Translations under genes and position numbers: made by a program
Origin: Moniliella sp. 'wahieum'
Taxonomy: Eukaryota
Direction: 5' to 3'
Assembly (NCBI GenBank): GCA_003971905.1
Contig: RSEE01000073.1
Span: 124,001-188,000, forward strand
Length of the DNA stretch: 64,000 bases
In this document: piece by piece, positions 600 to 62,926 of the stretch
Layout: the number at the start of each line of letters is the position of its first letter
Position numbering within the stretch: the stretch's first letter is position 1
Notes under the pieces: model-generated
Seen by the model: only the letters and a program-made list of their open reading frames with translations
Told to the model about the DNA's origin: nothing
Databases searched by the model: none

Positions 600-3500
600 G
601 AGGAGAGAATAAAGGACGGAACCGAAGGCGCACACAAGGAAATGTTGATGCTCCCCTAGGTGGGCGTGGGGCGTGGGGAGCTTGAGGCTTGGGGGGTATT
701 TATGTTGTTCTTAAGAGCCTACGTAGTACAGACGAAAGAAGATTCCAGAAGTATTGACGCGCCAGGCCAGGCCACGCCAAGGGTGGAGGCCGGGTTCGGT
801 TGGGATCAGGCCGATGAAGCCGGAAGGGACTGGGGGATGGATGCCCACAATGGGCGGCAGCGTGCTGTGAGCACGGCGTAGACCAGGTACCGCCTAACGC
901 AGTTCACGCGTTCACGGCGCTACGCATCCGAATCCGAGTCGCACAGATCGGCACGCCTCGTCTCCCCATAACAGCGGCAGTGGCTGTAACAGTCGGGGCT
1001 AAACGAGGGAGACCAAGGTCCTGTCAGAGGCGGGGGGAAAGGCAAGATCGTTCGTGGGAGGAAACAGAAGGCATCAGGCAGAGAACAGAAGCAAAAGGGA
1101 AGGGAAGAGCGAGAGACACAGGATGCGGAATTGGAAATTGGAGCGAGCTTAGTCATTCGGTGACAGTGGCCCAGATGGACGATCGGTCGTGGATCGGTGG
1201 CAGCACAGGAGAGCAACCCGGCTGTGGCTGAGTGGGGACATCATGCATCATGCATCACCGGTCACCAACAGCGGTCGCCTGCCTCGACACGGCCAAGGCT
1301 CGGCCCGAGGATGCTCGATCGATAACCCCACAGGATACCCCACAGAGTGGGGTCGGGAGTGTGCGTGCCTGCGCGAGCTGAGTCCTGAGGCTGAGTTCTG
1401 CAAGCGTCGGGTCTCAGGGCAAACGCACTTGCCGGTATATGTCTTGCGTTTGGTGGCTAATACGCGCTACGCACAGTGATGCGCACGTTTTTTCCTGCTG
1501 GGCCGAGCCGAACACAGCCGGTCAAAAAAGCTACACGAGACGGACGAATCAAAGGCCGACAAAACTCAAAAAGGCCGCCTGGGCCACGACCGCCACCGCG
1601 CCAGTGTGGGTGCGCTTTGACAGTGTTCCATATCTGTCGCCGACCTGAGGGGGAGAGGCTGGAAGAGGCAAGGAGGAAGTGGCGCTGGCGGTCAGGCGGG
1701 GGGGGGGGGCGCACAGAACACAACTGAGTGTTCTGTGCTGAGTGGCTGAGTACTATCACAGTTTTGGGGGGCTTTCCCCTCGAAGCCTCACCATTGGGGT
1801 TGTTGGGGGTCGGTTCGCATAGCAAGGTTGTGCGTATGCCCGCAACAAGTAGGACTAGTGTGGCTGTAGATGAGGCTCGGTGCCTGAAACGTTGGCCAGA
1901 AGGTTGACGCAGGTAAAGACCTGAGGGTATGACAGGTCCTGTGATGTCACAGCACTACAACTCCCAACTTTTGTAGTATCGCCGCTGGATCCGTACAGCT
2001 GAAAAGGAGACCGAAAGGAGAACGGCGCAATGAATACCGGGTCGAAATGAAAGGACACGGAAATACCTAGTAGTCGCTGATGGAAGCAGGTCGGTAGGAT
2101 GCTGGTGAACTATATACAGGAGTAACGTAGGAGTTGCTTGGTGGGTTAAGGATGGGTTTGCAAAGGATGTTGTTACAAAATGACCCGTTGGGGGGAAGAA
2201 CACCGTAGATGTCACGGGCGGGCGCCGCCAGGGGGCCCGCCCTGGGGTTTTTGGGGTACAATCCCTTAGGCGACGGTAGGTCGACTCGCGGTAGTTTCGG
2301 GCTTAGGCTGGTTGGTGCGTCCGAGCGGAGCTAGGGACGAGGAGAGGCCTTTGGTGGGGCGGCTGCACGTGTGGCAAGGCTGCGTCTGCACCGGCTTGGG
2401 CCGTAGTAACGTGTCTGAAGCCTCCGGGACTTAGGGACGGGAGGAGGCAGAGGGGGACAAACACTGCCTCAACAGAGACTGGGAATCGCCGCGACCAGAG
2501 GAGGGCTCGCGCGATTGGACTGACGAAGGGCTGGAGGACGAGGTCGGAGGAGAAGTCGGACGCTAACAAGAGAAGCTGTCTGTACTGGATAAATTGGCTG
2601 GAAACGGGCAGGAGTCGGACAGGATAGACGGGAAGGCGAGAGGATGACGAGAAAGGACGAGAATGGAAGGTGGGGGAAAAGATCCCCATCAACCAGGGGT
2701 ACAGGCAGGATCAAAAGGGAAACGGATACAAGAGGGGGTGTAGAAAGGAAGACATGTCAAAAGCGGGGTTGGTCGCCGCAGGCGCGACCGAGAAAGGAAA
2801 AGGAAACGGGAACGAGGCGGCAGACGCCGCCACGGCATTGGAAGCTCGGTGGCCTTATTTAGGCCGGCCGACTTGGACTTGGGCGGGGGGCGACTATTGT
2901 CGCGCGGAGCATGGTCCTTGTGCCACCGCACAGGGTACAACCAACCATCATCATACTTGGTTGGCCTGCGGAGCACGCTCTACTGGGCATGTGCGGAGCC
3001 GGCGGGCCTTAGCTTCGGTCGGACCATCTCGTGTCCGCCGCAGCCCGTGACAGTAGAACAACGGCTATACTACTCAAACAGGCGCTTTAAGGAATTGGCA
3101 TATACAGCGAAGAAAGGACGGAATAAAGGCGATGAATGTATGGCTCTCAAAAGGAGTACAGATCAAATACGGAAATGTTCTCCGCCAAACTCAGTTGGGA
3201 ACAGGACCAATCAAGCCCCAAAAGGACCCAAAGTAAAGTGGAGAGGTTCCCCGCCCTCAGCTAGAAACGTAAAAGGCATGTGGGGAGGATCTCACAAGCA
3301 GAACGAGACGATCATATGAGGAAGCTAACGTCCATCACATCTGGATGCTCAACTTGGAGCATATTTGCGTCCAAGACCAAAAAGATGATGTAAATCAGAT
3401 ACTCCAAAGCTCACGCACGGAGGGCCATGTCGGCTATGCAAAAGGAACTTACTCTTAACATTCAAGCCGGCCGGCGCACTCAGTCTTGCCATGCCCAATG

Positions 3501-7046: not shown

Positions 7047-8325
7047 TCCGATCCAACCGGACCCGACCCGGTCCGATTTAGTTTTGGCACGCCCTCAGTC
7101 GGCCCCGGGACATGCTTCGCCCACCTCGCTTACCTCGCCCTTCCCTGTTTTGTAGAAACTGCGCGTGCTGTGTGTTGTATGCTATGTGCTGTGTGCTGTG
7201 TGCGGCATGCACCCCACACTCCCTCTCCGTGGCGATGCGCCACGTACTCCACCGCCTTTGCCCCCCGTATTGAATGGTCCTCTGACGTTGTACGATCCCA
7301 ACTCTCATTAGGCGAGCGGACTTGACTAGCTTGGATATGCTCGTTTATGGCGTGACTGGTGCCCAGACCTTTTCCCCAGCCTTTCTCCTTTCTCCCGTCG
7401 GGTGTGGGGAGGAGACAAGACAGATTTCAAGGCCCGTCCAAACGCCCCGCACCGTCGGCTCCCCTTTCCACCCTTCCACCCGCTCGAGCCTGCATGTGAA
7501 CGCGATGTCTTTCTTCGATCGATGGGACTAAGGGAGGGTTACACGTTGGACTCAACATTTCGGTTGAACGCGAAAGTTGATGCTGTTGATGGGACAAATG
7601 ATGTATACTCTACTAGAATATGCCCGAAAACGCTGTAGACCCTCCGCACCGCGCCGATCCCGTCTTTCTTTGCTTGTTACGAACGGTACCAATACTAACT
7701 TTTACTTTATTCGTCCCGGCTGCAATATACGGACACGGACTCTCCGTACCGTCGGGACAGAGGGTGAGTGGGTTCCTGCGAGAGGAAGAAGAGGGACAAG
7801 ATCAAAGAGGTATACGGAAGTGTGTACGTATGTACAGAAGGAGGGAAGTAAGACAAACAGAACGTGTGGGATCTTTGATCCATCGATCATCGCAGAGAAG
7901 GATAGTATATCAAAAAGGAAGAGCTACTAAGGCCAAAGCCCAGCGGGTCGAAACGACCGATCGGATCTGCGGTATAATCCCCTTGATCCGCTCGAGGCGT
8001 TTGTATTTGGCAGGTACTGAGAGCGTGGAGAACCACGGGGGCAAAACGGTGTTGGTTTGTACAGCGTATCGTAAAACGCGTGAGGCCTGAACTCAGGCGT
8101 CCCTGAGGCCCCTGAGGCCTGAGGGCCGGAAAAGCAAAAGAAAATGCCATGCCAACCAAAACCCAAAGAAAAACTCAACTCGGCTTCACGACAAAAACTA
8201 AGGACAAAAAACAAAAGGGATGAGAGTCTCTCATCTCTCATCTCTCATCCGTCGACCGAAAGAAACGAGTAGGTTAGGTGCTTGGCAACGCAGCAACCAG
8301 CGAGGGCGAGGTGTTGGGCAGCGCC

Positions 8326-16921: not shown

Positions 16922-17245
16922 GGCCAGGAGGGGTGGTGGGGGGGGCGGGGCTGGCGCTGCGCTCGGCTGGGACAGGTCCAGGGAGCGGGTGCGTTGAACG
17001 TTGAATTGGCGGCGCCAGACGGAGCGCTGCTGGCTGACAAATGGCCGTTCCGCCCGCGCGCCCATTCCGCCCGCCCAGGCGCCGCTGATTGCGGGTCGAT
17101 TACGCGGTGACGCACAGGTGGCTGCCAAATTATATCCTGGCCGCAACCGTGGGCTCCAACCCACTGCCACCTCTTCCTCCACCCACCCATGGAAATGGTC
17201 TACGTATCGAGTTGTGTGCCGCACGCACGCGGCTCATCTCATTAA

Positions 17246-21198
<3,953 letters not shown>

Positions 21199-21447
21199 GG
21201 CGGGGATGGATGGTGGTGGTGGTGAGCCAAACCCCGCCCGTGGCGGCCGGCTGGTTTGTTCTCGTGTTCCGCCCGGCGCCCAGCGCGGCGTTCCGCGCGG
21301 TGCTGACGTCAGCGGCGCCCGTCCCAAAATCACCCCACACTTCCCCGCACCCCGGCCGAAAGGCAGCACAAAAGCACGCAGTCGAATTCCTGCGCCCTCA
21401 TAAGCGCCTTCAAACCCCCCACCGCCACCGCCACCGCCGTCTGCGCC

Positions 21448-23751
21448 ATGCTCACCCTCACCCCCGCCGCCCCCCGCCCGCTCCACGCGTCCGGCACGGC
21501 GTCGCCCAGCCCCTACGTCTACTACCCCACCAAGTGGTGGGACGACTCGGACCCCAGCCACGTGCAGCGCATGCACCAGGGCCTGCGCCTCCCCGTCGAG
21601 GTCCTCCGCCACATCTTCCTCTTCCTCGACCCCCACTCCCTCTACACCCTCGTCCGCCCCCTCAACTCCCAGTGGAAGCACGCCGTCGAGTCCGAGCTCA
21701 TCCCGCACCAGTTCCGCTCCGGCCGCTGGCGCATCGGCCTCCGCGTCTCCCGTCACACCCTTGCTACCCCGGCCCCCTCTTCCGCCAGCGCCGCTCCCGA
21801 CGCCGCCAACGTGCCCGCGCATGGCCACGACATGGACCGCCAGGTCCTCGAGGACCAGCACGCCCTCCATGCACAGCGCCTCCTTGACACGCCTGACACG
21901 CGCGAGGACGAGCTGACACGGCTGCTCGATACGCACACTCGCACCATCGAAGCCCTGTCGAATTCGTCGCCCGTGCCCAAGGGAACCCAGCCGCCGCTCG
22001 TTCATGTTATTCCGCTCAAGTTTTCCAAGTACGATCCTGCCACGCTAACACTGCACTTCTCCACGGGAGGGGAGTGGCATGCGCTCTTTTCGTCCTTGCA
22101 ACACCAAGGCTCCCAGTCCTCCTGGCTTGGACTCGACTTTGGCCTTTGCTGGCGCTACTGGGGAGACGGAAAACCTGACCCCAGCCCCACCGGGTGGGAA
22201 CAGATCGACCGCTTGAACCGCCTGTGGGGCTTGCCCGACGAAGAGAATGGCTGGCTGAGCCGTTTCTGGTTTGTGCGTATTCACTCCCCCCCCCCCCCCC
22301 GATCCATTCGGTTCTAGTGGCTGATTGCATTTTTTTGCCCCAGTCCGAGTATGACATTCGTGATGCCGCAAGCTCCCCGCACTCGCACGGAGAAGAGAAC
22401 AAAATCACCTTGCGCAGCACGCCTCTTGCCCCTCGCACTCGCCGCCCTGGTACCGAAACCCCCGGCTTACGTTCCCCGCCTCCCGAGCCGGCGTTTAAAG
22501 AGCCATCCCCGGATGAGGAGGCGTTGGTCTGGTCGGATGCAGGCCACCAATACGCAGCAATTGATGTTTCTCTCGGAATCGAGTATTTTACCCGGCAAGC
22601 GGCTCGAGCCAACCTGCTCGCCAAGGGGCTCGAGGGGGTGCTGCACCCGCCTCGCTCCAAGCGAGGCAAACGGTCGGGTCGGTCCACGCCTGCGCGGTCG
22701 GGTACCTCGACTCCGCGTCGGGCCGAGGTGTCGCTACGTGCGGACGCGATGCGCCAAGCAGCTTCAGGCAAAGCGGAAGAAGTGGACGACCTACGCCGAG
22801 CAGTAGAACGGGCGTTGTTGGACCCAGGCACGCCCTCACGATCGCTCAGCCCCGGTCCCACGTTTTCGCCCAAACCACGCCCGGCTGACATTTGGGCTCA
22901 GAAACCTATCAGCGTGACAAGTGGGACCAGCACCCCGCTCCGGACCAGTGGGAACGGGATCAATGGCACTCGTTCCGGGACTGCCACGCCGCTGCGACCG
23001 GCGGGGGATGGGGTCAATGGCCATCGATCCGGGACCTCAACCCCACTTTCGCCTCGGCAACCTTACCCCCCGCCTTACGTTCCAAGGAGCGGTGCCACCT
23101 CGCCCCGTCCCGGTTTGTCCTATTCGGCTGCCGCTGCCGCAGCGCGCAAGGCGAACCAGGCCTGGCTGAAACCCCCCTCGTCGGGCGTCCGAAACATTGC
23201 CCCGTTCCATCCGCCCAACGAGTCGGGAGGGGTGGGCATGCGCAAGACCGCCCTGGCCAACTCCTCGGGCACTTCCTCCCTTTTGCGGAGGTGCAGCACT
23301 TGCGTCTCTGGCGGCGGCGGCGCCTTTGGGGGCGCCTTTGGTGCAAGACAAGTCGTCTCCTCCTGCTGAAACAACTACAGTCAATGTTTCGGCGCCGACG
23401 CCTCCGTCTGTTGGCCCCGGTTCGCCCGCATCGCGGGAAGTGCGTTCGGCGACGGGCACACCTAAGAAGAAGGCCAAGCCGCTGGTATTGGCTGGGCCCC
23501 GCGCCACCTTTACCGCCCGCCTGTATCGCGCGGAGCATCTCATGCCTCCTGCGGATGCTGAGGGAGGCGCATCGAAGGGGCAAGCGGGTGGGAGGACGCT
23601 GGACGGGATGGAGCCTGGGCCAGTGCCTCTGGGCCCGTTGGTGCCGTCGCACTGGCACGGCGGGGATTCGTTTGGGCGGGGGGACGCGCGGGGGGTGGAA
23701 CGCACGGAGGATGCGCAGACGCCGCCGGTGGTGTGGTCGTGGTCGCGCTGA
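21448..23751 (+). CDS. F-box domain protein with long S/T/P-rich C-terminus
   Basis: F-box consensus RLPVEVLRHIFLFLDPHSLYTLVRPLNSQWKHAV; intron 22273-22343 (GTGCGT..CTGAT..CAG) joins in frame to SEYDIRD; repeated SGTSTP/SGTATP motifs; indel near 23260. Confidence 0.8.
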
Positions 23752-34807: not shown

Positions 34808-35249
34808 GCGCTCCGGTCTTGTTCCAAGGCTCCTGGGATCTCCTTGCGTTGGGTCCCTGCTATTTCGTTCGACATTATTCCTCTTCTCTGCACCCTGCTC
34901 GCTCGTCTTCTGGCAACTGCCCTGCCCAAAAATTGTTCCTCTAGTCCAATCATGAAATGGGTGATGAGATGACGCGATGACGAACGAGCTGCTCCGTAGA
35001 AAAGCTAGTTGGAGCCTGGTCGACGGATTGGCGCTGCGCCAAGAAAGAATCAAACCATGAATCAACAACCCAACTCGGAACGAAGCAGATTTATATTAGA
35101 AGCGGTGTGGCGCTGGGGGCTGCGACAGACGCCGGACGCCCCTGGGCTGAGCGGGGGGGCTGTGGGCGCTGGGCAGCCGTCGGCCCCGCCACTACACCAC
35201 ACTGCACAAGCCGCATTGCACCACACCCGCTGCCCGCCCTGGGTGCTCC

Positions 35250-38395: not shown

Positions 38396-38483
38396 TCCTC
38401 GATGGTCCAACGGCTATGATGTGACGCTCTCACGGCTACGGCCGAGTACCGTCAAGACCCGGGTTCGACTCCCGGTCGGGGAA
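38396..38483 (+). tRNA. tRNA-Glu(CTC): tRNA-Glu (anticodon CTC) with 16-nt intron
   Basis: Acceptor TCCTCGA/TCGGGGA, anticodon stem TGACG/CGTCA, loop CT-CTC-A, intron 38433-38448, T-arm CCGGG-TTCGACT-CCCGG, T5 terminator at 38487-38491. Confidence 0.95.
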
Positions 38484-39192
38484 CTCTTTTTACTAACCTG
38501 AAATGAACTGTTGCGACTCAATGACCAACTGTGGGCGCCTTACTCGCTATAGATGATCGATGATCAATGATCGATGACCGGTGACCAACGCGTAACATTG
38601 CTGGACCCGAAATCGGGAAACACTAGGGCAGTTACCGGTTACCCTCGTATAGCGTTCGACTCGCCCTTCTCGTTCAAGCTCTTGTCCAGCATGGCCGTAT
38701 TCTGTACCCAGAGCCAACTCTGGCTCCAATCCATCACAACCTTTTCCTCATTCTTCTGCCCATCTGGCCCCCTAGGCCAACCTGAGGCAGTATAAAAAGT
38801 AAGAGTGAGGTAGGGGATGGTAAACACGTAGCCTGCTGGCCTGCGCGCGGCAACTCTGGCACATAATAGGGTCTAGCTTTCAACAGCTACTAGTAATGGT
38901 AGATCATATAGCGACGAGACATTTATAACTCAGTGATCTGTCTGCAACGATGTAAATATTACATTCGTATAGTAGGCTTGGACCGAGAATGAGGAATGAA
39001 GGGAGAGGTTCGATGCATGTGGAAGATTCGTTGGAATAAGATGGGGTGGGGGGTAGCGAAAAAGCAGGGTTATCATTGCCCGTCCCAAAGGAGGTGTTGG
39101 CGGGTCGAATGCCTTTTGCATTTGAGGGGAAGGTGGCAGAGTGCAGGGTAGAAGAGGAGGAAGAAAGCATCATGGACATAATGTCGTCACAG

Positions 39193-41088: not shown

Positions 41089-43377
41089 GGTCGAAAACAA
41101 TGGGCGACGCTAAGGTCGATGGGTCTTGTTGGTAGTGGGTTGGAAGACGAGCAGAGAATGCGATGGAGGGAAGGAACGAAGCACCGTTCGGCAGTGCCTT
41201 TTAAAGGTTTGTTGGCTTTCAAGCTGGCTCACTGAGAATAAGTGGGGAGCGATGCAGTGATATGTCACATCGCGCCAGCTGGGAGGCGCGGTGGCACACA
41301 GGCTCACGTCAAGTTCCAGTGTGCACACCCCTAGCCCTGGGGGTTTACTATCGTAGACCGCTGCAATGCCTACTCCACCATCGTTCCCGTTCCTCCGCCC
41401 CATCCAGTGGAGAACACTGCCCCACGGGCTGGCCGATCTCTGCCGACTCCGAGTGTTGAAGTGCGACTGGGCGCCTTACAGCAGAGATCATGCACCAAGG
41501 AGTCAAACATCAAACCAAAACATGGCGGCGGTGGGCCCCCGCAAGTGGGCATGGAGATGTGTTTTGTTTCATCCGCGGGAGCAGTGGCACCACGAGCTTC
41601 CTTCACACGATGGGCCGATGGTCCTCTCTCCTTCGTCACCCGCGTCATGCGTCACGACAGGCGTTACGGGTTAGATCGCGCTCTTCGGTTCCTGCATTCC
41701 CCATCTGTGCAACCGGGGATGTTGGAACACGCGACCTTGGGCCTTAGCCTTAACTCCAATGACTTGTTACAGGATGCGCCTGTTCAACGTTCAACGTTCA
41801 CCTGGCTTTGACTCCCCCTTTGCCTCACGGGTCTACAGCCCCCGTTCCAGCTCCGAGACCGAAGCATTGGGACACAGTACTCAGCCTGAGTACTCAGCGC
41901 GCACAGAGTGTTCATCCTACGTTCATCGATCGAGCTCCGTGGCTCAGCGCGGGCCCAGCGGGTCAGCGCTCATCGCCATCGTTCACCCACATCGATCATC
42001 GCATAGTACACTGTGTGATCCCTGTGGAGCGTTGCACTCAGACCGAGCGCTCAACGCTTGACGGATGAAAGACTGGGAGAGTGCCCGCGTCGGCTTGCTG
42101 TGGTCCTGGCGCTTGGCACACTGGGGGCGAACTCATGCGAGCTTGCCGTCCTAGGCTACCGAAGGGCAAGAGTCATGGCGTTGTGGCGGCACATGTGAGA
42201 TGTGATGGCAAAATTCGAGGGAATGTTGTTACGCACTCACTTTTTCGGACTGAAGATCTGACAAGCTAAGCAGTGATGTGACATGTGACATGTGACGTAG
42301 CATTGGTGTCCCGCCCCCACTAGCCACTGCTTCCAAGCCTATGCGACTTGGCTTGCCTTGGCCTGCCTTGGCCACCGGCGAATGCCCTCAGCTACTCCGC
42401 ATCTCCATGTGACGCGGGTTAGGCGTGACGAATGGGCATGTGCATGACTAGTGACTAGTATGGTGCTGTGACATGTGAGGGACGACGCGTGACGCGGTGA
42501 CGAGAAAGACCTTCGGCCTTTGGGACATCGGTCATCGATCAGATCTAGGATCGAGCTACTGCTTCGGTGCCACAAGACACAGGTGGCCACCAACGTTGTA
42601 CGTTGTACGTTGTACGTTAACGGTATGTTGATGCATGATGGCGTTGCCAGGACGGTCGAGGGGCATGCTCATACAGACGAAGCCATCCTTGCCCCCCAAC
42701 TTCCTACTATGATATTCAGGCCGACTCTTCCCCCTTTCCCCAAAAGTCAATGTGGGGCGAACGTTGGCAACAAGTGCGTCCGTTTCATGTCACAGCCCCA
42801 GCCACAAATGGTAGCGTCAAACCGGAGCACCTACCATCAAAAGAAGCGCAAAAGGCGGAGGAGATTGCAGACGAGCAAAGCGCCATGCATGACGATGATG
42901 GATGATGCCGATGATGGACGATGCGTGTCCGGTGACCGGTGACCGGATGACCGATGCTCGGGTTTCAAAAAATATTGAACCTTAATAATCAGGCGATCGT
43001 GCTCTACGTACTCAGCGCCCAAGGCGCAGCAGCGCGCAGCAGCCACGTACAAACTGTTTCATGTAGCGTGTAATCAAACTTAACCCAAAATCAAAGCGAC
43101 CGACGCGGGACCGACACACTGCCCCCCTGCGACATCGGTCAAATTATGCTGTGGCCGCAACTGCAGCCGAGTGTCGCAGGCCGCGCGGTGCGGCTTATCT
43201 ATCACCCGAACGAACAACCAGGACTGCGAGAGACACTACGCACTCCATCGCCTACGTCATTGAACTTGTTCTTCATCGCATCCTTCCTGCCCGACGTGCG
43301 GCACCTCCGTATGCCGCGCTCCCACTCTCTTCCCTACTTCTGGAATACTTCCCTTCTGCCTTGAAGAGTTGAAGCTC

Positions 43378-43475
43378 TTCAAGCTTCAAATGAACTTCAA
43401 ACTTCAAGCTTCAAGCTTCAAGCTCGATGATCGATGATCGATGATCATCGATCATGCATTATCATATATCATATA
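43378..43475. repeat. Compound 7-bp-period array of TSA + 4-bp palindrome units (AGCT, TCGA, TGCA, TATA spacers)
   Basis: (TCA AGCT)x3 at 43404-43424, (TGA TCGA)x2-TGA/TCA TCGA TCA TGCA at 43428-43458, (TCA TATA)x2 at 43462-43475. Representative of dozens of such arrays in intergenic DNA. Confidence 0.9.
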
Positions 43476-45055
43476 GGTTGAACACGTTGAACGCTTCAAT
43501 GTATACTGCACGTCGAAGGTTGACGCGTTGATGTGTGGACGTCGTGGAAGCTTGAGGCTTAAGTTGAAGTTCTCGGCGATTAAGGAGCTTAAGGAGCGAG
43601 CGTCCTGTGGATCGCCCAGCGGTGGGCTCATCATGCAGGAAACCAAACCATCGCAATGGGAAGATGAAGAAGATATGACTGTTTGATATGCTTTTGTGGT
43701 CGAGTGCATTTTGGTGGAGTAGATCAAATCCAGTGTCCCCACTTGGATCGAATATCATATGGGATGGATGTGCACCCAGAGAAATCTCGATCTCATTCCG
43801 CATTTAGACTCTTCCAATGGAACTGCGCGGTTGTACATCACTGCAGCGAGAACACTCCAATCAGTCAGACCGGCCATTGCCTGTTAATTGGTGCATTTTC
43901 CTTTGACACAGGGAGTGACTCTAGTGACTAGTGACTAGTGACTAGTCAAGTGACCAATTGATATTGTTACAGACCCATCGCCAGTCACACATGCGTTACA
44001 GCCTGTTACAGCAAGTGATTAGTGTGCTTGCCGAGTCCGCGATATATGATAGTTAGCGCAGTGCATTTGAGGGAAAGGTTCAGCGCGTAATACAGCGCTC
44101 GCTCAGCGCACTCAGCCTGGCCCAGCGCCTAAGGCTCTGCGCTGGGTCGCAGGAGGTCTATGGCATGTGAGCCGCTGAGCGCCTCAGCGCGCTCAGGCTG
44201 AGCGACGAATACCAAGCTGGGGTGTGCATCCGTCTTGTACTCAGTTAGGCACGGCAGTGCGTGAGTATCCGACACTTGAGTGTATTAGTCCTAGCGCGAA
44301 GCCATGGAGGGTGATGCATGATGCATGATGCATGTTGCGTGCCACACGAAGTGTGGTGCATGATTCTATGTATGAGGCAGCGGGGCGCCCAGCTTAAGTG
44401 TTCCTTCTTCGATGCGAGCGAAAAAGTAGGCAGAGTCGGGTGTTTGGGCTGCGGCGTTTGATGTCTCAGTTTCGCCGCTGTCTCTGGCTGCCCACAACGA
44501 CCCTAGCTGTGCATCTGTATGTAGACCCAACGCATCATTCAGTCACCCGGTCACCCCGGTCACGTAGTCCCCAGTCACCCTAGTCACCGGTCACTGGACG
44601 TGTGATGCATGATGCATGATGCATCCAACATCAATTATTTCATCTCTCAGATCTCAGGTCGGACATATATCCCGACGATACATGCTTGGTTGCTGAGGGC
44701 TCGCTGAGGCCTGAGGTACCGTGCGTACCAGAGGACATATACCTCCCACCTATCGACTATCCCCACTTGTCTTTTATGTCTACTCTCCATGACATTTTTG
44801 GACATCAGTAATACTCCTTGATGCATCGACCGCGCTGGAGACAGGGCACGCGTATATATCTCAAAGAGAGGATATTATTCCTAGGGTATAACATCGTCAG
44901 AGAATGGGGCTGGCCCACTGGATCTAGTCCTCTTCTTTTCCACCGTTGAACGTTGAAGCATAAAGCGGACAAGCAAAAAGCGGACAATTAAAGCAAAAGC
45001 GGACCACTATCTGATCCAACACACTACTGAGGAAACATCAGATTCACGCCAAGGC

Positions 45056-45126
45056 ACGTCCATTTCATTGACAGAGCTTAAGGCTGGGACAGGGGGAACG
45101 CTACGTCTAAACCTAACCGTTCATCT
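45056..45126 (-). repeat. Second copy of the 3' terminus of the non-LTR element (direct repeat of 47834-47906)
   Basis: 47-nt core AAGGCTGGGACAGGGGGAACGCTACGTCTAAACCTAACCGTTCATCT is identical at 45080-45126 and 47860-47906; ACGTCCATTTCATTG is shared upstream of both. Confidence 0.85.
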
Positions 45127-46028
45127 AGGTTTTCTTTCCCAGCAAGCCTTAAGCTGCGCCGGCTTCAAGCTTCAAGCTTCACCGGTCACCACTTCTTCTC
45201 CTCTCTCTTCCCTTCTGGCGTAATGTCACCGTCACCGCTCTGTAACCTCCACAACGCCCGTTCTCTTACGATTCCAACTGATGCTTTTGTTCCTGTTGCG
45301 ACCTTGGCATCCTCAGTTCAGGATTGTTCAGGACCAAGCCTCTCACTAGGTACATTTGCGGCTTCAAGCTTCAAGCTTCAATTCGCTACATATAGCCTCA
45401 CGCGTCACGGTGCTTCCACAGACGTTTGCCCACCAGTAGCTAGCTCACAGTTTGGTAGTAGTATAGGCCAACACCTTTAGTGAAGTAGGCGGTTATTTCT
45501 CCGCCCGTATATACAGTACGATGATATCGATGATACCTCCAAGATCACCGGCACCGTGCAACGACCCCCCCCTATTTGATGGCAACCACCACACTTCGAT
45601 CTCAAGAGACGAGCTCGCCCGTCGCTCATAATGATGTGCATGATGCACATTATGAGCCTCTCATCGATCATCGGCCCTCAGGCCTCAGGCCTCAGGCTCC
45701 TCATCTCATCGTAAGCACCATAGTAGAAGAGAATGCACACCACACACACGTATTATCGATCACATATCTCTCTCCCCGCCCCCCGGCAACCGAGATGGCT
45801 TAAGCGGTTAGCATAGCTGTTCGCTCCAACATTCAATTCCGTCACCTCGGCCGGGAATAACGAACGAGAGAAGGTTGAGGACACAATGAAGATCGATTAT
45901 TTTCGTCCCCTGAGTCAAAAACAAGGATGGAGGTGAGGTTTAAGAGAGGAAAAGTATAGTGGGCCATTTGCTATTAGGGATAATGAAACAATCGCCATAG
46001 GATTTGCGTCAGAAGGGTGCGGCCACAA

Positions 46029-46128
46029 GTCGGGTTAGCTCAGATGGGAGAGCGTGAGATTGAAGATCACTTCAATGGAACATCCTCTGGATTCCTCAAG
46101 GTCCCCGGTTCGATCCCGGGGCACGACA
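46029..46128 (+). tRNA. tRNA-Phe(GAA): tRNA-Phe (anticodon GAA), intron-containing, with stem mismatches (possibly atypical or pseudo)
   Basis: GTCGGGT-TA-GCTC-AGATGGGA-GAGC-G-TGAGA-TT-GAA-G..intron..CTCA-AGGTC-CCCGG-TTCGATC-CCGGG-GCACGAC-A followed by T6. Intact A and B boxes. Confidence 0.85.
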
Positions 46129-47833
46129 TTTTTTGGCGATATGGTTACACAGGCATCTACCTCAACAACCACATAATCTCTCTTCGCTGTGAATCGGGGA
46201 AAATGTCTTTTTAGGTAGGATGAATCCGCCGTCCCACGGTGCGTTAGGCTTAGATCACAGAGACCTCAGATCTCATCAGCATAGATCAGACGACTCCTCA
46301 GGCTGTGCGAGCTGAACCTATTCTGAAAAATCTTCAGAAAAGCCATGTGACCTGTGAGGTATACTACTATGTGAGTTCGGAGAGGCCTGTGAGAGGTCTG
46401 AGGCCTGAAAATCTCTCGAGCCCATATGTATACTCTCAGAAGCTGAAACCTGAAGCTCTGGTGACGGACGACGAAAGCGCGAGGGAAAAGCGTGGTGTCT
46501 TTGAGTCTGCTATGAGCGTCGGGATTTTTTCGTACCCTCCCCCGTCTTCTAACCGTAAAAGCACGCACAGTCGCAGTCCACACAAACAAGAGTGCCAATG
46601 GAACTAGATATACAGAGGCCACACAGCCGTCAGCTCGCGACAATCGTAAACTGACGTACGGCAACAAAAAATGTGCCCTGGGGGGCAATGTCAAAAACCA
46701 GTACCACAGTCAATTATGGATGTAAAAATCCTCAAACAGGAACCATGCATCATTTGCAAAAAACGTTCAAGGGGGGGAGATGAAAAGTATTAATACCCCT
46801 ACTATGACCATGGGATCACACTACCAAGTCACTCCACCATATCTCATCATTTGCATCTCATTAGTATCATTTCCTCAGCACAGCAGAGAGCCACATGTGT
46901 CACACTGGTACTTAATCCAGGATTTTTGTATCATTCACAAGAATACTGAGTTGGATGATAATGACGTTCTTCATATCCTTGCCCCGTCGGGCTATAGGGT
47001 CCACAGAGACAACGTTGTCTCGCGTAGTGATCCCGGCCCACTGAAGATCTGCATTCAAGTATACCCGAAATGATAGAAGAAAACAAGTCTAAGCCATCAG
47101 AGCATGTATATAAGGAAGGCAGATCTGGATATGTTTTCGCATATCTTTCCTTTAGTGTCCTCTTTGTGTATGTATTCAAAATGAGCTCTCAATGTGAAAG
47201 ACCAATCTACTGAGTATATAGGGTGGCAACGGGAGAAGCTCCTATTTGCTCATCGTCCTTTTGAGATTGTAGAGGCCCCGTCCTTCCCGTCAGTTCTCGC
47301 GCGTCTGTGGGACAAAGATCCCCCAACAGAAACACCATTGGTTGATGAGGGCAATGACACACTCATAGCAAGTGGATTCGTTGTTATAGGGACTTGTTGT
47401 TGGGGCGATACCCCAATCACGCCATCCTGCGTGCAGTGATAGCGCTCCCTCAGCTCCGCGCTACCCTCGGCTAAGGCTCTACCCTTCTCATAACCTCCTG
47501 TACCTCTCCTCAGAACCACATCCTCCATTCCACTCCTCTTCAGCACTTGTTACCCATACATATACTCCGAGGGGCATAATAACGACTATATAAGTACGCT
47601 ACAAGATCGCAACCATCAGTGTGTGGTCTTGGCAAAACGAGTATCATATAGTAGCACAGTAGAATACTCAGTCCGAGGCCATAAAGGCATGCTCGAGCAC
47701 CTTTGAGAAGTCCCACACAGTATACCAATCGTTATAGAGGCCAATAGTACCTGAAAAATACCACAGGACATACATCTGGAGAAGGCCAAGGCGGGCCAAC
47801 GACGCAGTGCATAAACGCTTCTATCCCAAGTTA

Positions 47834-48380
47834 ACGTCCATTTCATTGGCAGACTTAAGAAGGCTGGGACAGGGGGAACGCTACGTCTAAACCTAACCGT
47901 TCATCTTGCGGGGGTTACTTAGGGGCGCCACCAGGGTCAAGGAACCAGGGGGATCGCCAGGATATCAGGACCCTCCGACTCATGCCATCCGGTCCCGTAC
48001 CCTAGGAAGCGCGTATGGACACGGAGGAACGTGGTTGACATCCGAGCGAGGAACCATTTCCACTGAGACTTAGTAACCAACTCCTTCCAATGCGCAAACA
48101 ACTTGCTCGCCGTCTTGGTGCCGTAGTATCCTCGCGTCGTCAAAACCAGGGGGAAAAACGTCTCTTGAGTGCGTCCCTGGTACTTGGCGTTCTTCTCGCA
48201 TTCTGCTTGTTCAAGCATCCGAAGCAGCTCCTTCTCCGGCGTTCCAAGGGGGTTGCGGTGCTCGCGTGCACCACCCTCCGGAATAAAATCGGTCGAAATG
48301 GCCTGCACTTTTTACATCAGCTGCCCCGTGCCACGTTCCCAGCCACCCGCAGCCAGAGTATCGGTGATATTATTTGCCCT
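47834..48380 (-). mobile_element. 5'-truncated non-LTR retrotransposon remnant with restriction-like endonuclease (RLE) C-terminus, CRE-like
   Basis: ORF 47937..48308 reads LEQAECEKNAKY..FFPLVLTTRGYYG, matching the K..KY / FxPLVxxTxG pattern of RLE-clade elements. A frameshifted DVK-V lies just upstream, and a ~100-nt 3' UTR ends at AATGAAATGGACGT. Confidence 0.7.
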
Positions 48381-48381
48381 C

Positions 48382-48532
48382 TCCAGCGTGGAAGGGTTCC
48401 AGCGTGGAAGGGTGGACCGGGGGAACGGTGGCTAAGGTGGCGAAGGGGACCGGTGGCTAAGGTGGCGACGGGGGAACGGTGGCTAAGGTGGCGACACAGC
48501 AGACCGGGCCGTAGGCCCGGTGGTCTTCTCGT
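48382..48532 (+). mobile_element. Helitron-like 3' terminal fragment: minisatellites, GC hairpin and CTCG|T end
   Basis: TCCAGCGTGGAAGGGT x2, then three ~25-nt units containing GGTGGCTAAGGTGGCGA, hairpin ACCGGGCC-GTA-GGCCCGGT (48503-48521), CTCG at 48528-48531 and T. Confidence 0.5.
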
Positions 48533-50965
48533 TTTGCAATAAAACCCATCCTACGCCGTGGTTAATCTGCTCTTTTGTGGGCATGTTGAATCTGGATATA
48601 AAAGCCTCTGGGCTTATTATGAGCCTGCACATGAGATCGAGCTTTTTGCTCTAATGGACGGCAAAAGTGTGGGGTATAGTGTGGGGTATGCGACAGATTG
48701 GCAGCGCATTGGACTTGATGCCTTTTATATCATCTCTGTTGAAAAGGTGGGATAGTGTTGATGGAGAAAAGTACACAACTGATTCGAGAGAAGCAGAACG
48801 TGTGGAAGGCTGTAAGAGACCCATAACATCGTAAGCGCCTATCAAATACGAGGAGAGACGAGAGAGCTATGGGGTTATACTCATCTGGGTTAGTAGACAC
48901 GATGTGGGCGAGGTAAACCGTCTCCAATAAGAATCTTTCGGCAAGTTTTTTCTTCCAGTGTGTTCAAGCATCTTTTTGCATTCTTATTGGTGTGTCTCGT
49001 CTTCAGCCTGAAGGGAGAGAGAATGTGTTTAGTGAGTCCCTGGTTCGAGGTATTCTTGTGGCAAACCGCTTGCACGGACCACCGATTCAACTCCTTTTCT
49101 CCAAAGGCTGTCCATGGACGTCACTGTGTCCTCGTCATGTGCCACCACGGCTCAGTCAAAAACGGTCTACGCAACCTTGCCCTCCTTGCACCGAGTCGCT
49201 TTTAGAGTGTGCCCCAAACTCAACACATCCATTTTTGAGATCCGACAAATGTCCCTGTCCCCGTCCATATTCTCGTGCTATGCCAGATTCAATTTGGAGA
49301 CGAGGAGAGCGATGCAAGATAGGGGAGAACGGGATATGGTCCTGATCTACTACCGCCGCTGTTGGCGCTGCCATAGTTGATGGCCTTCAATAATTTCAGG
49401 ACGGGAACCAGTGATGGCGAGACGAGCGAGGCTAGTGTGGTGTGGTTGAAGCGGTTCCCAGAACCCCCTGCTGGTGCTTAAAGTTAGTGTGTATTAGATA
49501 GAAGATAGATGCCAGTATGGATTCGGTCATACTTTTATAGGCACTCGATCGTCGTAATTGGCAGTTTTGCTCGCCGGAATACACGCGAGAATAATAGCTT
49601 GCTGGAGTGTGACTTGGGAGCACTCGCGATCCTACAACGGATCAGCTGCAAAGCATCAGCCTTCAGATCTCAGACAAGGCCTGAAGGCGAAGTGGCGAGC
49701 CACAAGTATTCAAGTAACGTCCGAAGGAAAGGAGACAGGAGAGAGAGGAGGGAGATGGAGCGAGCAGGGGGTGCACGGGCTGTGAGAGCGGAACTCTTCT
49801 GGCAGGCTCTAAGCGAGCGTCACCGGTCAACTGAGGGTCGGGCAGGGGAACCCTAGCACTACCCTCCAGCATAGGATAGTAGACTTGACTTGGGGATCAG
49901 TAAAAGCGCTGTAAGCATTGGTCATCATCTTCTGTAAAGTGGCTCGTGCTCCGTGGGGGGAAATGAAATGACATCATCATTAGCTAGAGTATTCCCTGTC
50001 GCAAGTGGAACAGTCTCCCAACGAAATGGCATGTGGCGGGGGAATAGCATGATGCATGATGCACGATTCGATTTCCTTTTCCTCTAATCTCTCTTAGATC
50101 TCTCTCCCTCCCCCTTCGCTCTCACACGGCCCCATGATCACGAGCCTGTTTTGCGGGGATATTAGCTGTGGCAGCGAAACGTAGTGTGGGCGGGGGCGAG
50201 ATGGAATCATTACATCCTATCACAACTCGATGGAAGCCATCCAGCAGACACGGGAGACTCTGTGTACTACTACTGGGCTGAGGCTATCTCTCTCGCTCTC
50301 TGGACTTCTATAGGACACCTCTCTCTCCTGTGAAAATAGGGTCGTCTTTTGTGCGTATTGCGAGGATGGCCGTGGGGAGGGTGGCCGCATCTGCCGAGCG
50401 TGAGGGCGGGTGAGATGAGAGGGGCGATTCAAGATCTACGTTTCCCACCCCGGGTGGAGAGTGGCCCCATCCTGACTGGGTCCCAATGGACCATTCGCCA
50501 TAGTTCGTGCACGAGCCACGCCTCCCGGGCGCTGCACGGGGCTGCCACGGCGGCGCTGCGCTGCCCCCACGCCGCCCCCAATGCGGAGCCCCACACTATT
50601 TCAGCCCCGCACAGGGGCAGCGTCGTCTGCTTGGGGCGGCGGCGCATCAGACACCAATCACCGATCGCCGTGGCAGGCGTGGGTGCCCACCGAGCACTAA
50701 CCCACTCTCAGTACCCACACGACCACGGTGCGCACACGCACCCCATCTGCAGGCGCCCTTTCGTGCTGCCGTGTCCATTCATGAGCGATTGCTGGGCAGT
50801 TCGCCTGCGTATATATACCCCCCCCCGCCGTCGTCCTCCTTCCTCCCTCTCCCCAGGCAACTCCCCCATCCCAGAGAGCCATTTGAACGTCTCTCATCAG
50901 CTCCTTTTTCAGCCACCTCCCTCCCGTCCACCCTCCACCCTCCTATCATCCTACGTGTGCCCAAG

Positions 50966-58471: not shown

Positions 58472-60373
58472 GGTGGGGAGGCAGCGGAGGGCGGACGTTG
58501 GACGTGGACGGCGCAGAGAGAAAGGAAGGGCGAGCGGCAGGCGGCAGCCACACCGAGTACTCAGTTGAGTAGTGTGCTGGCGGATGATCGATAAGCAGCA
58601 AATAATCAGGCCCAGCGCTGGGCTGTCGGGGGCTGCGTGCGCACTGCTCGCTGTCTGAGTGCTCGTGTGGGATGGCAGTGCGTACGTCAGCGCAGCGTGC
58701 ATCCCAAGCTTGGCATGCACTATGCACGGGCCGACTGCGATCGGCCGCCGCGAGCATCGATGGACGATGCACGTCACGCGTCACGCGTCACAGCGTCACG
58801 CTGGGCCAGCCATGCGCCGAGACAGGGCGGCTGGGCTGTGCAGGCCAGCAACCCAGGCGTCGTGTGCCATGTGCCATGCGACATGCGACCAGTGCGCGTC
58901 ACCTGGGTTACTGTCCTACTGAGTACTGACGCGTACGCAACTCCAACGCAGTCCTGCGCACGCCCAGTGTATGACCAACGCAGCGCCGGGCTTGTCTCGC
59001 TTCGCACCCGCTGCCAGCGTCGGCTGAGGCCCAGGCGGCCGCGCTGTGCCCCGGTGGGACTGGTGACCAGCACACGTCACATGTCACACGTCAAGCTTCC
59101 AGCTTCCAGCTTCACTTCAAGGCGGCATGCAGCCTGCAGCCTGCGCGTCATGCTCTGCGCGTGCCCACGCAGTACGCAGTCGCAGTACTCAGTACTCACC
59201 GCTTGCCCGCCACACGCATTGCTCCGGGCGCCACATTGGGCCCTGGCACAGCACAGTGCACCTGTGCGGCAGCCAGCCGCGGAGCACTCAGACCAGGGCC
59301 GCAGTTCCCAGTACTCAGTACCCAGTTACTCCGTGCGGGTGCCTGCGGGTGCGCCTGCCATGCAATGCGCCCCCTCACCCATCGATGCCGCTCACCGGCC
59401 ACCTGTCATCGATCGTGGATCATCGAATCTGTCGACGCGCTTTCGAATTGGCAGAGCATCCAATATCCAACGTCCAGCTTCCAGCCTCCCCGCCGCGCCA
59501 GGCCGCTGCCAGCTGCGTTGGAACGGCCGCCTGGGAAGCTGGAAGCTTGGAGCGTTCACTGGAACTGTCCCACTGCAAAAGCTTGAGCGTGTTCAACAAC
59601 AAGCTTCCAGGGACTGCTGACGTACGAGTAGCATCATGTGCTGCTTGCTAACCGAGGCCATGTGCCATGTGCCATGTGCCATGTGCCATGTGCCATGCAC
59701 CCCCTCGCATACAAACAAGACATGCGCATTCCGCCTTGCGCGCTGCCCCACCCGAGGCCTGACCCCTGGGTTGCTACATCGACCGAGGGGAGCACCTTAC
59801 CCACCCCATTCCAACACGTCCCTCCCGAGTGTGCTGGCGCTCCGCCTCAACTCCTCTGTGCTCCCCGCCCTCCACACGGCGGGGGTACGCGAGCCTATGC
59901 ATCACCACATTCAACGTTCAACCGGCCATCATTAATCATTGTCATCGACATCATCCAACGAGCGCAGCCACAAGAGAGAGCCAAACCACATCAAACCAAA
60001 CCAAAACGAGAGAGAAACAGAGCGTACCGCGTCGCGTGTCGCGCGCAGCCCAGCATCCCAGCGTCCCAGCAGGCAACCAACAGCCTAGGCCAGGGAGACA
60101 AGTTGAACGCGGGGGAGGGGAAGGGGAGACAGCGGGAGATTACTAGGGAAAAAAAGATAAAGATAAAGATAGGACGTGTCGTGCCGGCGCGGGGCCGGGG
60201 GGAGGGGGGGTTATTCGATATAGGACCAACGGCGAGCGAGAGAGGAGATAGGAGAATGGGAGAGACAACGTGGCGCCTCAGGGGTTCGTAGCACACGAGC
60301 CCACTAGCCACTGGGCACCGGACCTGATCGACCCTCGCTCCTCGCTCCTTGCTCCTCGCCCATCAACCATCGA

Positions 60374-62926
60374 TCATCTTTCCTCTTGTGCTTCAAGCCG
60401 TCGTAGGGCCTGGAGCAGGATGAGGGGCTTGAGACGAGTCGCTGCGCGTGGGCGAGGAGGGAGCGACTGGGGCAGGCGCGGCGCAAGGGGGAGGAGGGTG
60501 TGGTCTTGCTTGTTCTCAATTTGCGTGGGCTGGGGCGCCTGGGGGAGCGCGCCAGACGCAGCGGGCAGATCCAGGTGCGTGCCAAGAGCGGGCGGGGGGT
60601 CCAGGTCCGCAGAGGGAAAGTGAGCCGAGTACTTATCCACCAGGCTCTTGACCTTGCCCACTAGGACCGCTCGCTCGGCCTGGATGTGCTCAAAGGTAAA
60701 CTGCGGGTGGGCAGGACGCGGCAGGCCACGCATCAAGGGGCCCACGTTCCTCGGCGCCGGCAAGCCCAGCGCAAGGAACAGCGGCGGAAGGGAACGGTAC
60801 ACGTCCAATGCGTTTTCTCCCAGTCGGAGCGAGATGTACGCCCACAAGGCCAAGCCGGGCCAGACGAGCATAGGTAACGCCGGTAGGCCCACCACGGGCA
60901 CCGAACTGAAACTCAGTCGGCGCAACCGACTCCACCACGTTGAGCCGAGAATCCACCATGACGGGCGCGTCGCTGGTGCAAAGGTCTTCTGAGCCGCCCA
61001 GGTAAAGACCAAACTGTACAGCGACCACAGCGTGGGGGATACGACGGCGGCCACCATGACTTTCCAGCTGGCCAAGACGTCGCGAGCGGCCACCTTGACA
61101 GTGGATTCGGCCAACGCCTCGCGCGCCTTGATCCGAGCCAAGCGTTCGGAAATCAGGTAGATGGGCAAGTTGAGCGCAATGCCCGGAAGCGCCACGCTCA
61201 ACCAGCCCAGCAGCCGAGCCAGCCGAAGCACCAGCACGCCCATCATCCATGCCCGACCGTGAAGCCGCGCTTGCCTGGTCGCATTGGCCACCTGATGATC
61301 TTCCAAGCCAAAGGAACCCAGAACGTCGAGGTACCTCTCGATTTCTTTTTGTAGTTGCATCACGTCGGGTTCGTGGCGGAAATGGAGGTAGCCCTTGAGC
61401 AGCTTACGACTGAGCGCCATCACCTGGCCCGGGCTCAGGTGTCGACGACGTTCCTCCTGTTCGGCAAAGGAAAGGGGTGCCACCTCGTCCCCCTCCAACG
61501 AGTGCTGCAACGGAAGCGGATACAACCGGCGAGCCGCATGGACAAAGCGCAGCGTGGCGAAATCGGGGGCCTCAATCACCACGCTCTTCACCCCTTCTTC
61601 GATTCTCGCCATCATTTCTCCTGTCGCGGCTCGCTTTTGCTTGCCGCCCTGAGAAAACTGCTGTACCAGCTCTGGCGGGACGGGAATCGACCGTCCAAAC
61701 TCCACCACGGCACGGGAACGGAACTGGTCCCGGTGGAAATAGTAGAGGCCGACCGGGACCACCTTAAGTTTGAGGTTGGGATGGGTCGATAGCGCACCCA
61801 ACGCAATCAATGCAGCTCCTGCTTTGAGGGGGAGGAGAGAAGTGCGGTCGTGGCTCCCCCCTATATAGACAAACAAAACTGTTACCTCGAGTCTCTGAAA
61901 CCAACGGGGCCACCCTACTTACCTTCGGGGAAGATACCAACGCTCTCAGAGAGGAGCAACCGTTCGTATACTTGTCGGTACATGGAAGACTGGTCTAGGT
62001 AGGGCACCACGGTGAACTCCGACCCGTGGTCCAAAGCTTCGGACAAGGCTTGCATTTCAATTCGGTCGTTGGTGGGGAACGGAGCTTTGACCCGCACCTC
62101 GGTATCGGAGATGACTTGGACTACCGTTGCCGTTCCACTGCCCAATGGTTTGGGAAGCATAATCTGTCCACGCACTTCCAGCTGCTCGGTGAATACCGTA
62201 CCTTGTCCCACGACCAGTGTCGGGTCAGACGAGGAGACACGGACTGTGCCTTTTCCCGGCTTGGCATTGTCAAATGCGCGGGCAACCGGGACTAGAACGC
62301 GAACCGGTCAGTGTCCATCAAAACAAAAACAAAAACAACAAAAAGGGAAACGAGCGCAACCTACTTCCTTGCATGGCCCGAGCAAAAGCACCGACAAACA
62401 ACCGTTTCCAGCTCTTCTCGGCCGTGACAAAGGTAACGTGTCGGCCACTGGCGCGGAGAAGCTCGGACGAGACGACGGCCGGGTCGAGGAACTGGTTGGC
62501 ATGCGGTGCACACACAAATAGCACCCCATCTGCTTCTCCCGGAGCGGTGGCAACGAGGGGGATGCGGTAGATCCCGCGCGTCTCCACACACCGGAAGAAC
62601 ACATGCAGCACGATTCTCCACAGCGCAATGATCATGTCAAGCGACTGGACTGGCGTCAGGATTGGATTGGATTGGATTGGATGGTTTCCCCCACACTACA
62701 GGAAGAAGGGACGTACCATGTTGGCTGGGTTGAGGCCCGAAGCAGCAAAGAAACGCACCAACGCCGCCTTGACAGAGGGGGGGAGATTGGCATCGACAAA
62801 GTGCGGAGGCAAGAAGGGGATGGAATTGAAGAACTGGGTTAGGGAGAGCTGGGCGGCATGCTGGGCACGCTCCGCCCTGGAGTTGGCAGGCGCAGCGAGT
62901 AGGGTGGACCCGGGTGACACGGGCAT
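60374..62926 (-). CDS. SCT1: Glycerol-3-phosphate/DHAP O-acyltransferase (Sct1/Gpt2 family)
   Basis: Exons 62926-62717, 62644-62365, 62291-61923 and 61860-60374 splice in frame. Motifs FVCAPHANQFLDP, IPVARAFD, IFPEGGSHDRT, VPVGLYYFH..FRSRAVVEFG and RDVLASWK. Confidence 0.95.

Follow-up and report, generated by a model that had tools for sequence, protein, structure and literature searches.

How does a fungal genome come to carry, again and again in its non-coding DNA, a 10-bp word in which the same trinucleotide stands on either side of a palindrome that changes from copy to copy? The question is posed by a stretch of 64,000 nucleotides (nt) of Moniliella sp. 'wahieum' (contig RSEE01000073.1, positions 124,001 to 188,000), hereafter the window, to which all counts given below refer. 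The trinucleotide, or core, is TCA or TGA, written TSA where S is C or G; pal4 denotes a 4-bp palindrome and a prime marks a complement. The pattern is real and far above chance, its palindrome is set by the two bases beside the core and is not free, and the anatomy of the copies points, at a little better than even odds, to the footprints left by a DNA transposon on excision.

Abundance and anatomy of the TSA-pal4-TSA word

Words with the same core on both sides of the palindrome number 73 (42 TCA and 31 TGA), against an expected count of 1.7 under an order-1 Markov model, 3.0 under an order-5 model (30 simulations each) and 0.9-1.4 under an order-3 model. A preliminary description of this DNA, which had counted several dozen such words by eye, had put the chance expectation at about 2 per 64 kb, a fair estimate given the Markov range of 0.9-3.0; all 18 of the 10-mers that it placed by coordinate were found where it put them, and our recount likewise gave 15 of the 16 possible palindromes as spacers, with ATAT absent. 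The 10-mers inside one array overlap and are not independent, so that the proper counting unit is the array, of which there are about 61: the 73 words group into 61 arrays, or 44 clusters, and the number of arrays is still more than 20 times the expectation.

The enrichment is confined to one combination of core, spacer and period. TSA cores separated by a non-palindromic 4-nt spacer occur 22 times where 16-23 are expected, and the palindromic share of 4-nt spacers is 77% for TSA as compared with about 6% for the other 62 cores (126 palindromic, 1960 non-palindromic). Pairs of TSA at other gaps were counted as 5 + 21 (gap 2), 13 + 25 (gap 3), 2 + 24 (gap 5) and 1 + 38 (gap 6); gaps 2, 5, 7 and 8 lie at or near expectation and only gaps 3 and 6 are mildly raised. 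Spacers made of a 2-bp palindrome, a 6-bp palindrome or a double pal4 showed no enrichment between TSA cores in the window, and among other conceivable footprint families, taken as any core of 1-6 nt joined to pal4, none was prominent there. Of the 16384 possible 7-mers, 224 are by our own arithmetic rotations of TSA + pal4; such rotations account for 22 of the 56 exact period-7 runs of at least 14 bp. Across palindromic and non-palindromic spacers, other cores and other periods, only TSA with pal4 is thus strongly enriched, and the specificity on which the preliminary description had staked its case is borne out. Its statement that nearly all words lie outside coding exons stands in so far as only 2 of the 73 fall inside stop-to-stop open reading frames (ORFs) with a Pfam match, whose spans take up 18.4 kb, 29% of the window (binomial p = 8e-9); the figure for this avoidance of coding sequence is approximate, as it is based on the spans of Pfam-supported ORFs and not on proper gene models.

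The two cores of a word share the same S in 73 cases and differ in only 3 (TCA-pal-TGA, 0; TGA-pal-TCA, 3), and are therefore direct copies of each other. Fold-back or template switching through the core, which the preliminary description had favoured, predicts perfect TCA...TGA palindromes, and a simple fold-back of this kind, or a correction of quasi-palindromes, is ruled out by the scarcity of opposite cores and by the want of any general palindrome excess: palindromes of 6-12 bp are in general not enriched, those of 8-12 bp are at or below expectation, and the only excess concerns A-pal4-T flanked by C..C (68 against 17 expected) or by G..G (53 against 18 expected).

The spacer was held in the preliminary description to be of free identity, a claim that has to be given up, since in most arrays it is dictated by the dinucleotide adjoining the core. 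On the right-hand rule, TSA-r1r2 becomes TSA-r1r2-r2'r1'-TSA-r1r2, and on the left-hand rule l2l1-TSA becomes l2l1-TSA-l1'l2'-l2l1-TSA, the added unit in either case being a direct copy of 5 nt and an inverted copy of 2 nt of the flank. This flank signature is present in 47 of the 61 arrays, where chance would give it in about 12% (p = 3e-31). It is of the right type in 20 arrays, of the left type in 18, of both in 9 and of neither in 14, the near-equality of left and right being what a symmetric reaction predicts. Among the 45 two-core arrays, period-7 identity beyond the 10-mer peaks at a+b = 2-3 nt (24 cases), where chance predicts 0, and 32 of them have at least 2 nt of period-7 extension on one side; three cores are found in 12 of the 61 arrays. 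In the three compound arrays (at 1239, 38552 and 45162) the palindrome switches a single time, from one derived from the left flank to one derived from the right, around one common core. What survives of the earlier proposal is accordingly its broader part, the copying and inversion of nearby sequence at TCA or TGA, for the spacer is an inverted 2-nt copy of the flank joined to a direct copy of the core and 2 nt.

A rarer class of joints extends the repeated unit. Whole nnTSAnn 7-mers occur as direct repeats 2 nt apart in which the two intervening nucleotides are the reverse complement of the adjoining repeat end (P type); such a spacer is present in 5 of the 8 TSA-centred 7+2+7 repeats and in 5 of 79 other 7-mer repeats (Fisher p = 3e-4), and two more TSA-centred 7-mer repeats have a 1-nt spacer (at 902 and 34968). 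The joints seen thus fall into classes with a net gain of 7 nt (61 arrays), 9 nt (5) and 8 nt (2). From these repeats the duplicated unit would appear to be 7 bp long and symmetric about S, which is the outcome to be expected when a symmetric dimer of the enzyme makes a staggered cut; a 5-bp unit beginning with TSA would lack this symmetry. A 7-bp duplication less 2 nt at each end gives the 3-nt core, and 2 nt followed by 2 P nucleotides give the 4-bp palindrome.

An excision-footprint reading and its competitors

The reading that we prefer, with a probability of roughly 55%, is that the arrays are excision footprints of a cut-and-paste DNA transposon, to which repeated hits at the same spot have added further units. 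The steps of the proposed mechanism are all drawn from the anatomy of the products, their chemistry being established in other systems. The element would integrate by a 7-bp staggered cut centred on T-S-A and would then be flanked by a 7-bp target-site duplication, l2l1-TSA-r1r2. On excision, the transposase would leave covalently closed hairpins on both flanks, as do the hAT, MULE, Transib and RAG enzymes, and a host nuclease of the Artemis/Pso2 type would open each hairpin 2 nt 3' of its apex, yielding self-complementary 4-nt 3' overhangs (r1r2r2'r1' at the left end, l1'l2'l2l1 at the right) on duplexes that end exactly at TSA. End joining would ligate each overhang to the opposite recessed 5' end, and the 4-nt mismatch would be resolved to one overhang by replication or repair, giving TSA, a pal4 made from one flank's dinucleotide and TSA again, a net gain of 7 nt with the same S in both cores. 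Each scar would supply a new TSA site, at which re-insertion and excision could extend the array, perhaps aided by slippage.

Such a mechanism would produce the 3-nt core, the 4-bp palindrome, the 7-nt period, the identity of S in the two cores, the dependence on the flank, the balance of left and right and, as minor products, the 7+2+7 and 7+1+7 joints; gains of 7 nt shift the reading frame, and selection would therefore keep the scars out of coding sequence. Because perfect words outnumber their one-mismatch neighbours (73 against 58, with 31 of the latter expected), the scars would be recent or still forming. As in footprints of the hAT, MULE and Transib class, the duplication recurs on either side of the joint, in the form of same-S cores and of nnTSAnn 7-mers 0-2 nt apart, and P nucleotides are templated by its terminal bases, in the arrays with a flank signature and in the P-type repeats. 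It is known that hAT, Transib, MULE and RAG form flank hairpins, which host enzymes open and end joining turns into footprints (PMC5499845), that repair of Ac/Ds hairpins in yeast requires a host factor (PMC3299998), and that Ac/Ds footprints in Candida albicans comprise short deletions as well as inserted P nucleotides that are palindromic (PMC5873905). No transposon is present in the window, and we infer the agent, for which a hAT-like family with 7-bp duplications (hAT7 type) is the best candidate and elements of the Kyakuja type are an alternative. A 2025 paper describes hAT7 families in the Pucciniales, including Puccinia and Melampsora, and attributes duplications of the same length to the Kyakuja elements of Laccaria (PMC12730594).

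A good deal speaks against a transposon all the same. No Pfam transposase domain was matched in the 214 window ORFs of at least 120 aa or in the 95 ORFs of 75-119 aa from 35.5-54 kb, and among these same 309 ORFs Pfam likewise matched none of the hAT transposase domains (BED, dimerisation). A self-BLAST of the window returned no multi-copy repeat except one 74-bp pair, segments bounded by identical nnTSAnn 7-mers show no terminal inverted repeats above chance, scans for such repeats with 7-, 5- and 3-bp duplications, together with controls, detected no resident element, and neither a donor element nor a filled site was found in the 64 kb. One product class dominates (61 arrays, as compared with 7 joints of the 7+1+7 or 7+2+7 form), and the three classes form a much narrower spectrum than the 28 types among 128 events recorded for Ac/Ds in C. 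albicans, where the two commonest were seen in 35 and 18 clones (PMC5873905). The 14 arrays that lack the flank signature do not follow the rule, the predicted product that keeps both overhangs, TSA-pal4-pal4-TSA, occurs 0 times in the window, and the 12 three-core arrays require repeat hits at one spot or extra slippage. Identical array pairs 190-290 bp apart are unaccounted for, the text and supplement of PMC12730594, as far as they are available, state no target consensus for hAT7 or Kyakuja, which leaves a TSA preference unconfirmed for any known family, and the whole evidence comes from a single 64-kb window.

The strongest competitor dispenses with the transposon and supposes a host-encoded or domesticated activity, hairpin-forming or of a nick-and-turn-round type, by which 7 nt (5 direct, 2 inverted) are added time and again at T-S-A sites: a nuclease would nick or break the DNA at TSA, and repair would re-copy TSA and 2 nt, turn round on the displaced strand or the hairpinned end for 2 nt and ligate. 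The anatomy of the product would be identical, and the uniformity and density of the arrays, in a window with no element, suit this explanation well. We nonetheless regard it as unlikely, because we know of no enzyme that can make, other than by staggered integration, a direct duplication of 7 bp with a single base pair as its centre of symmetry, and a zero-loop turn-round of 2 nt is, to our knowledge and by our own reasoning, the chemistry of transposase or RAG hairpins and not that of a polymerase. Continued fold-back would moreover yield cores of opposite S, which are not enriched, and the 7+2+7 and 7+1+7 joints resemble the variable processing of two ends that each already bear the 7-mer. 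Alternative end joining does, on the other hand, make templated insertions at sequences that form secondary structure (PMC5728401). The 5+2 and 7+P+7 anatomy is better fitted by enzymatic flank hairpins and a 7-bp target duplication than by the polymerase fold-back of the preliminary description.

Arrays that already exist may well gain units by ordinary replication slippage of heptamers, in which hairpin-prone (quasi-palindromic) units would be the ones most apt to expand. Three period-7 arrays that combine pal4 with a core other than TSA are homogeneous, so that whole units must have been copied, namely (GCCATGT)5.9 at 59657-59697, (ACGTTGT)3.7 at 42593-42618 and (AGCTTCC)2.9 at 59094-59113; they are probably units that were mutated and then copied whole, and amplification at the level of the unit probably occurs as well. 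As the origin of the pattern, however, slippage is largely refuted and altogether improbable. Microsatellites born in this way have at least two full units of an arbitrary motif, whereas 61 of the 83 exact runs measure only 10-13 bp, under two units, the motif is limited to TSA + pal4, and the flanks past the first mismatch match the period at 0.33-0.40, barely above a background of about 0.25, and so are not decayed longer arrays. Nor could slippage derive the palindrome from the flank, fix T-S-A or spare other spacers and cores, and the doubt already cast on it before this analysis proves well founded. The same holds for the doubt about a protein-binding grammar. Targets of a dimeric DNA-binding protein, or elements that selection maintains for a structural or regulatory role, might be expected to be non-coding, clustered and mostly perfect, as these words are, but the spacer varies over 15 palindromes at the dictation of the adjoining dinucleotide, the perfect 10-bp palindromes usual for dimer sites are not enriched, and the arrays abut, switch strand and keep no fixed architecture, which together make this explanation very improbable. 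Least probable of all is an artefact of assembly or sequencing, in whose favour no evidence came to light, since we know of none that adds a flank-templated 7 nt only at TSA, and the avoidance of ORFs and the existence of point-mutated copies point to evolved genomic sequence.

Several further schemes were tried and rejected. A 4-bp palindromic duplication of the Sleeping Beauty style with a 3-nt end remnant would allow adjacent cores to differ in S, and pal4-TSA-pal4 by itself is rare; a 3-bp duplication of TSA with 2+2 nt of transposon termini conflicts with the flank-templated spacer and the occurrence of 15 palindromes; and a 5-bp duplication of the Transib style with one-sided P nucleotides yields an identical main product, yet it lacks symmetry about the cut and leaves the 7+2+7 repeats unexplained. 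Opening of the hairpin at +1 predicts x-y-y'-z spacers, of which 3 were observed against 4.6 expected. The palindromic repeats of Fusarium mitochondria and the Replitrons are unrelated to the TSA pattern.

If the arrays are indeed excision footprints, the rule (nnTSAnn, plus 7 nt, with a flank-templated palindrome) would let the jumping history of a transposon be read without the element, in any genome of the lineage, and would yield the target preference of the element, the position at which the host opens hairpins (2 nt) and the joining habit of the cell. It would also show concretely how heptamer repeats can be started and lengthened by excision scars, and would mark a major source of non-coding insertions, at about one array per kb here. 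If no element exists, a new kind of templated mutagenesis would be at work; were a transposon-free activity responsible, it would constitute a dedicated, sequence-anchored mutational process that generates heptamer microsatellites de novo and is the source of a considerable part of the small non-coding insertions.

Catalogue of arrays and genomic setting

Representative arrays and joints are collected in Table 1.

Table 1. Arrays and joints built on TSA in the window, in order of position.
Position	Sequence or composition	Remarks
902-916	GTTCACG-C-GTTCACG	7+1+7 joint
1239-1266	CA-TCA-TGCA-TCA-TGCA-TCA-CCGG-TCA-CC	Compound array; seed probably CATCACC, left units from flank CA, right unit from CC
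8102-8124	CCTGAGG-CC-CCTGAGG-CCTGAGG	7+2+7 P-type joint, then perfect 7-bp tandem copy
17239-17250	TCATT-AA-TCATT	Isolated right-type 12-mer, typical of the commonest class (5 nt direct + 2 nt inverted)
34968-34982	GATGACG-C-GATGACG	7+1+7 joint
38552-38586	GA-TGA-TCGA-TGA-TCAA-TGA-TCGA-TGA-CCGG-TGA-CC	Compound array; seed probably GATGACC; one unit with G>A
41782-41800	GT-(TCA-ACGT)2-TCA	Left-type array, 3 cores
42276-42296	(TGACATG) array	3 cores; second TGACATG array at 42467-42478
42929-42946	CCGG-TGA-CCGG-TGA-CCGG	Both flanks match
43377-43475	(TCAAGCT)n and decayed TCAAACT units, mirror double array, then (TCATATA)2	Densest cluster
43424-43455	(TGATCGA)n-TGATCA-(TCGATCA)	Mirror-image double array from TGATCA seed; 22-bp perfect palindrome
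43477-43492	GTTGAAC-AC-GTTGAAC	7+2+7 P type, centred on TGA
43914-43946	AGTGACT-CT-AGTGACT, then (AGTGACT)n	7+2+7 P-type joint, continuous with 3-core TGACTAG array
44312-44334	(TGATGCA)3.3	Identical 22-nt array at 44603-44624
44573-44594	AGTCACC-CT-AGTCACC-GG-TCAC	Non-palindromic 7-mer repeated with 2 P nt, then right-type unit
45162-45190	CT-(TCA-AGCT)2-TCA-CCGG-TCA-CC	Compound array; seed probably CTTCACC; near-identical 23 nt at 45361-45381
45520-45535	GATGATA-TC-GATGATA	7+2+7 P-type joint
45661-45697	TCA-TCGA-TCA-TCG, then CC-(TCA-GGCC)2-TCA-GGC	
58772-58791	CG-(TCA-CGCG)2-TCA-C	Left-type array, 3 cores, then decayed units
59076-59198	TCA-CATG-TCA, then (AGCTTCC)n bounded by TCA cores, GCA-GTAC variants, TCA-GTAC-TCA	Second hot zone
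59910-59940	T-TCA-ACGT-TCA-AC and A-TCA-TTAA-TCA-TT	Two right-type two-core arrays

In three cases a pair of arrays built on the same unit is separated by 190-290 bp (44312-44334 and 44603-44624; 45162-45181 and 45361-45381; 42276-42296 and 42467-42478). Two of the pairs are identical or nearly so over 22-23 nt, bases outside the array included, and the sequence between paired arrays is unrelated and without terminal inverted repeats. At 8227-8249, (TCTCTCA)3.3 repeats the 7-mer TC-TCA-TC exactly and contains no palindrome; a possible explanation is a scar that retained both duplications without alteration. Between 44540 and 44600 runs a series of TCAC units with imperfect or longer spacers (TCA-CCCGG, TCA-CCCCGG, TCA-CCCTAG), which looks like several overlapping joints of differing type at one spot.

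The window is a fungal nuclear region with a guanine-plus-cytosine (GC) content of 0.60 and Pfam matches to striatin/WD40, LSM14, histidine phosphatase, a Pho85-like kinase, gamma-glutamyltranspeptidase, Ndc1, MFS, GPR89-like and Kelch proteins. The ORF of the Pho85-like kinase is 82-84% identical to basidiomycete proteins, and, among named proteins, those that match the striatin-like ORF best come from Puccinia (39-40% identity over 43% of the query). More than half of the words, 38 of 73, lie in a gene-poor segment of low GC (0.50-0.54) at 40001-48000. It forms part of a low-GC island at 36000-50000 (0.48-0.55, as against 0.60-0.71 elsewhere) that has few long ORFs, an MFS fragment as its sole Pfam match and about half of the arrays. 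In this gene-poor, scar-rich stretch, a match of 37.4 bits to the Rfam tRNA family RF00005 covers positions 46029-46128 of the plus strand, whereas ARAGORN reported no tRNA; as the match spans 100 nt, the tRNA probably contains an intron. The window's only dispersed repeat, 74 bp at 93% identity with 47 nt identical, stands in direct orientation at 45056-45126 and 47834-47906, its copies 2.8 kb apart.

Long coding repeats based on hexamers were noted at 17559-18013 and 25436-25617. About 76 copies of (TGGGCT)n lie within a 1019-aa ORF with a Myb domain on the minus strand, and the reverse-complement-like (CAAGCC)n adjoins the ORF of the Pho85-like kinase; the two make up inverted repeats, 74-88% complementary and 7.5 kb apart. 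The segment at 20001-22000 has a GC content of 0.71 and long overlapping ORFs on both strands, with no Pfam match.

Comparison with known systems

Elements of the Sleeping Beauty/Tc1-mariner type leave a scar of fixed length, in which a few nucleotides stand between two copies of the duplication, a short palindrome-like word at each excision site. The inner bases of that scar are supplied by the transposon ends and do not vary with the site, whereas those of the present arrays are supplied by the local flank and do. Synthesis-dependent microhomology-mediated end joining, in its snap-back and loop-out forms, resembles the process considered here in adding short direct and inverted copies of the flank (PMC5728401). 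It depends on primer repeats and loops that are already present, and its products vary in length, as opposed to the fixed 5+2 nt found here, with no prior homology and at one trinucleotide only.

In Ustilago maydis, 'numerous small (10 bp) repeats' have been proposed as footprints of transposable elements (TEs; PMC4081816). Like the TSA-pal4-TSA words, these are 10 bp in size, numerous, intergenic and of a basidiomycete, a likeness of description. The GC content of the window (0.60) and its protein matches do not mark it as DNA of U. maydis. The rule proposed above could be relevant to this older claim, made for smut fungi, of '10 bp TE footprints' whose sequence it leaves unspecified.

Hairpin footprints and hAT elements with 7-bp duplications are already known. 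A full-text search of the literature, with subscription papers outside its scope, found no report of the stacking of such excision scars into tandem arrays, nor of a genome-wide, rule-like heptamer grammar that arises from them with a T-S-A target. A close likeness is to the footprints of hAT elements of the Ac/Ds type and to the P nucleotides of V(D)J coding joints, in which the target duplication is kept on either side of the joint and short palindromic additions are drawn from the terminal flank bases through hairpins opened off their apex and joined end to end (PMC5499845, PMC5873905, PMC3299998). The arrays differ from these systems in that one joint type strongly predominates and the scars, at 61 arrays in 64 kb, are densely packed and stacked in tandem, and from Ac/Ds-type elements in that the duplication is 7 bp and not 8. 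No hAT7 or Kyakuja element, nor a transposase of that kind, was found in the window. These two are DNA transposons of basidiomycetes, hAT7 in the Pucciniales and Kyakuja in Laccaria, whose 7-bp duplications equal the unit that we infer here, and hAT7 belongs to the superfamily known for its flank hairpins (PMC12730594).

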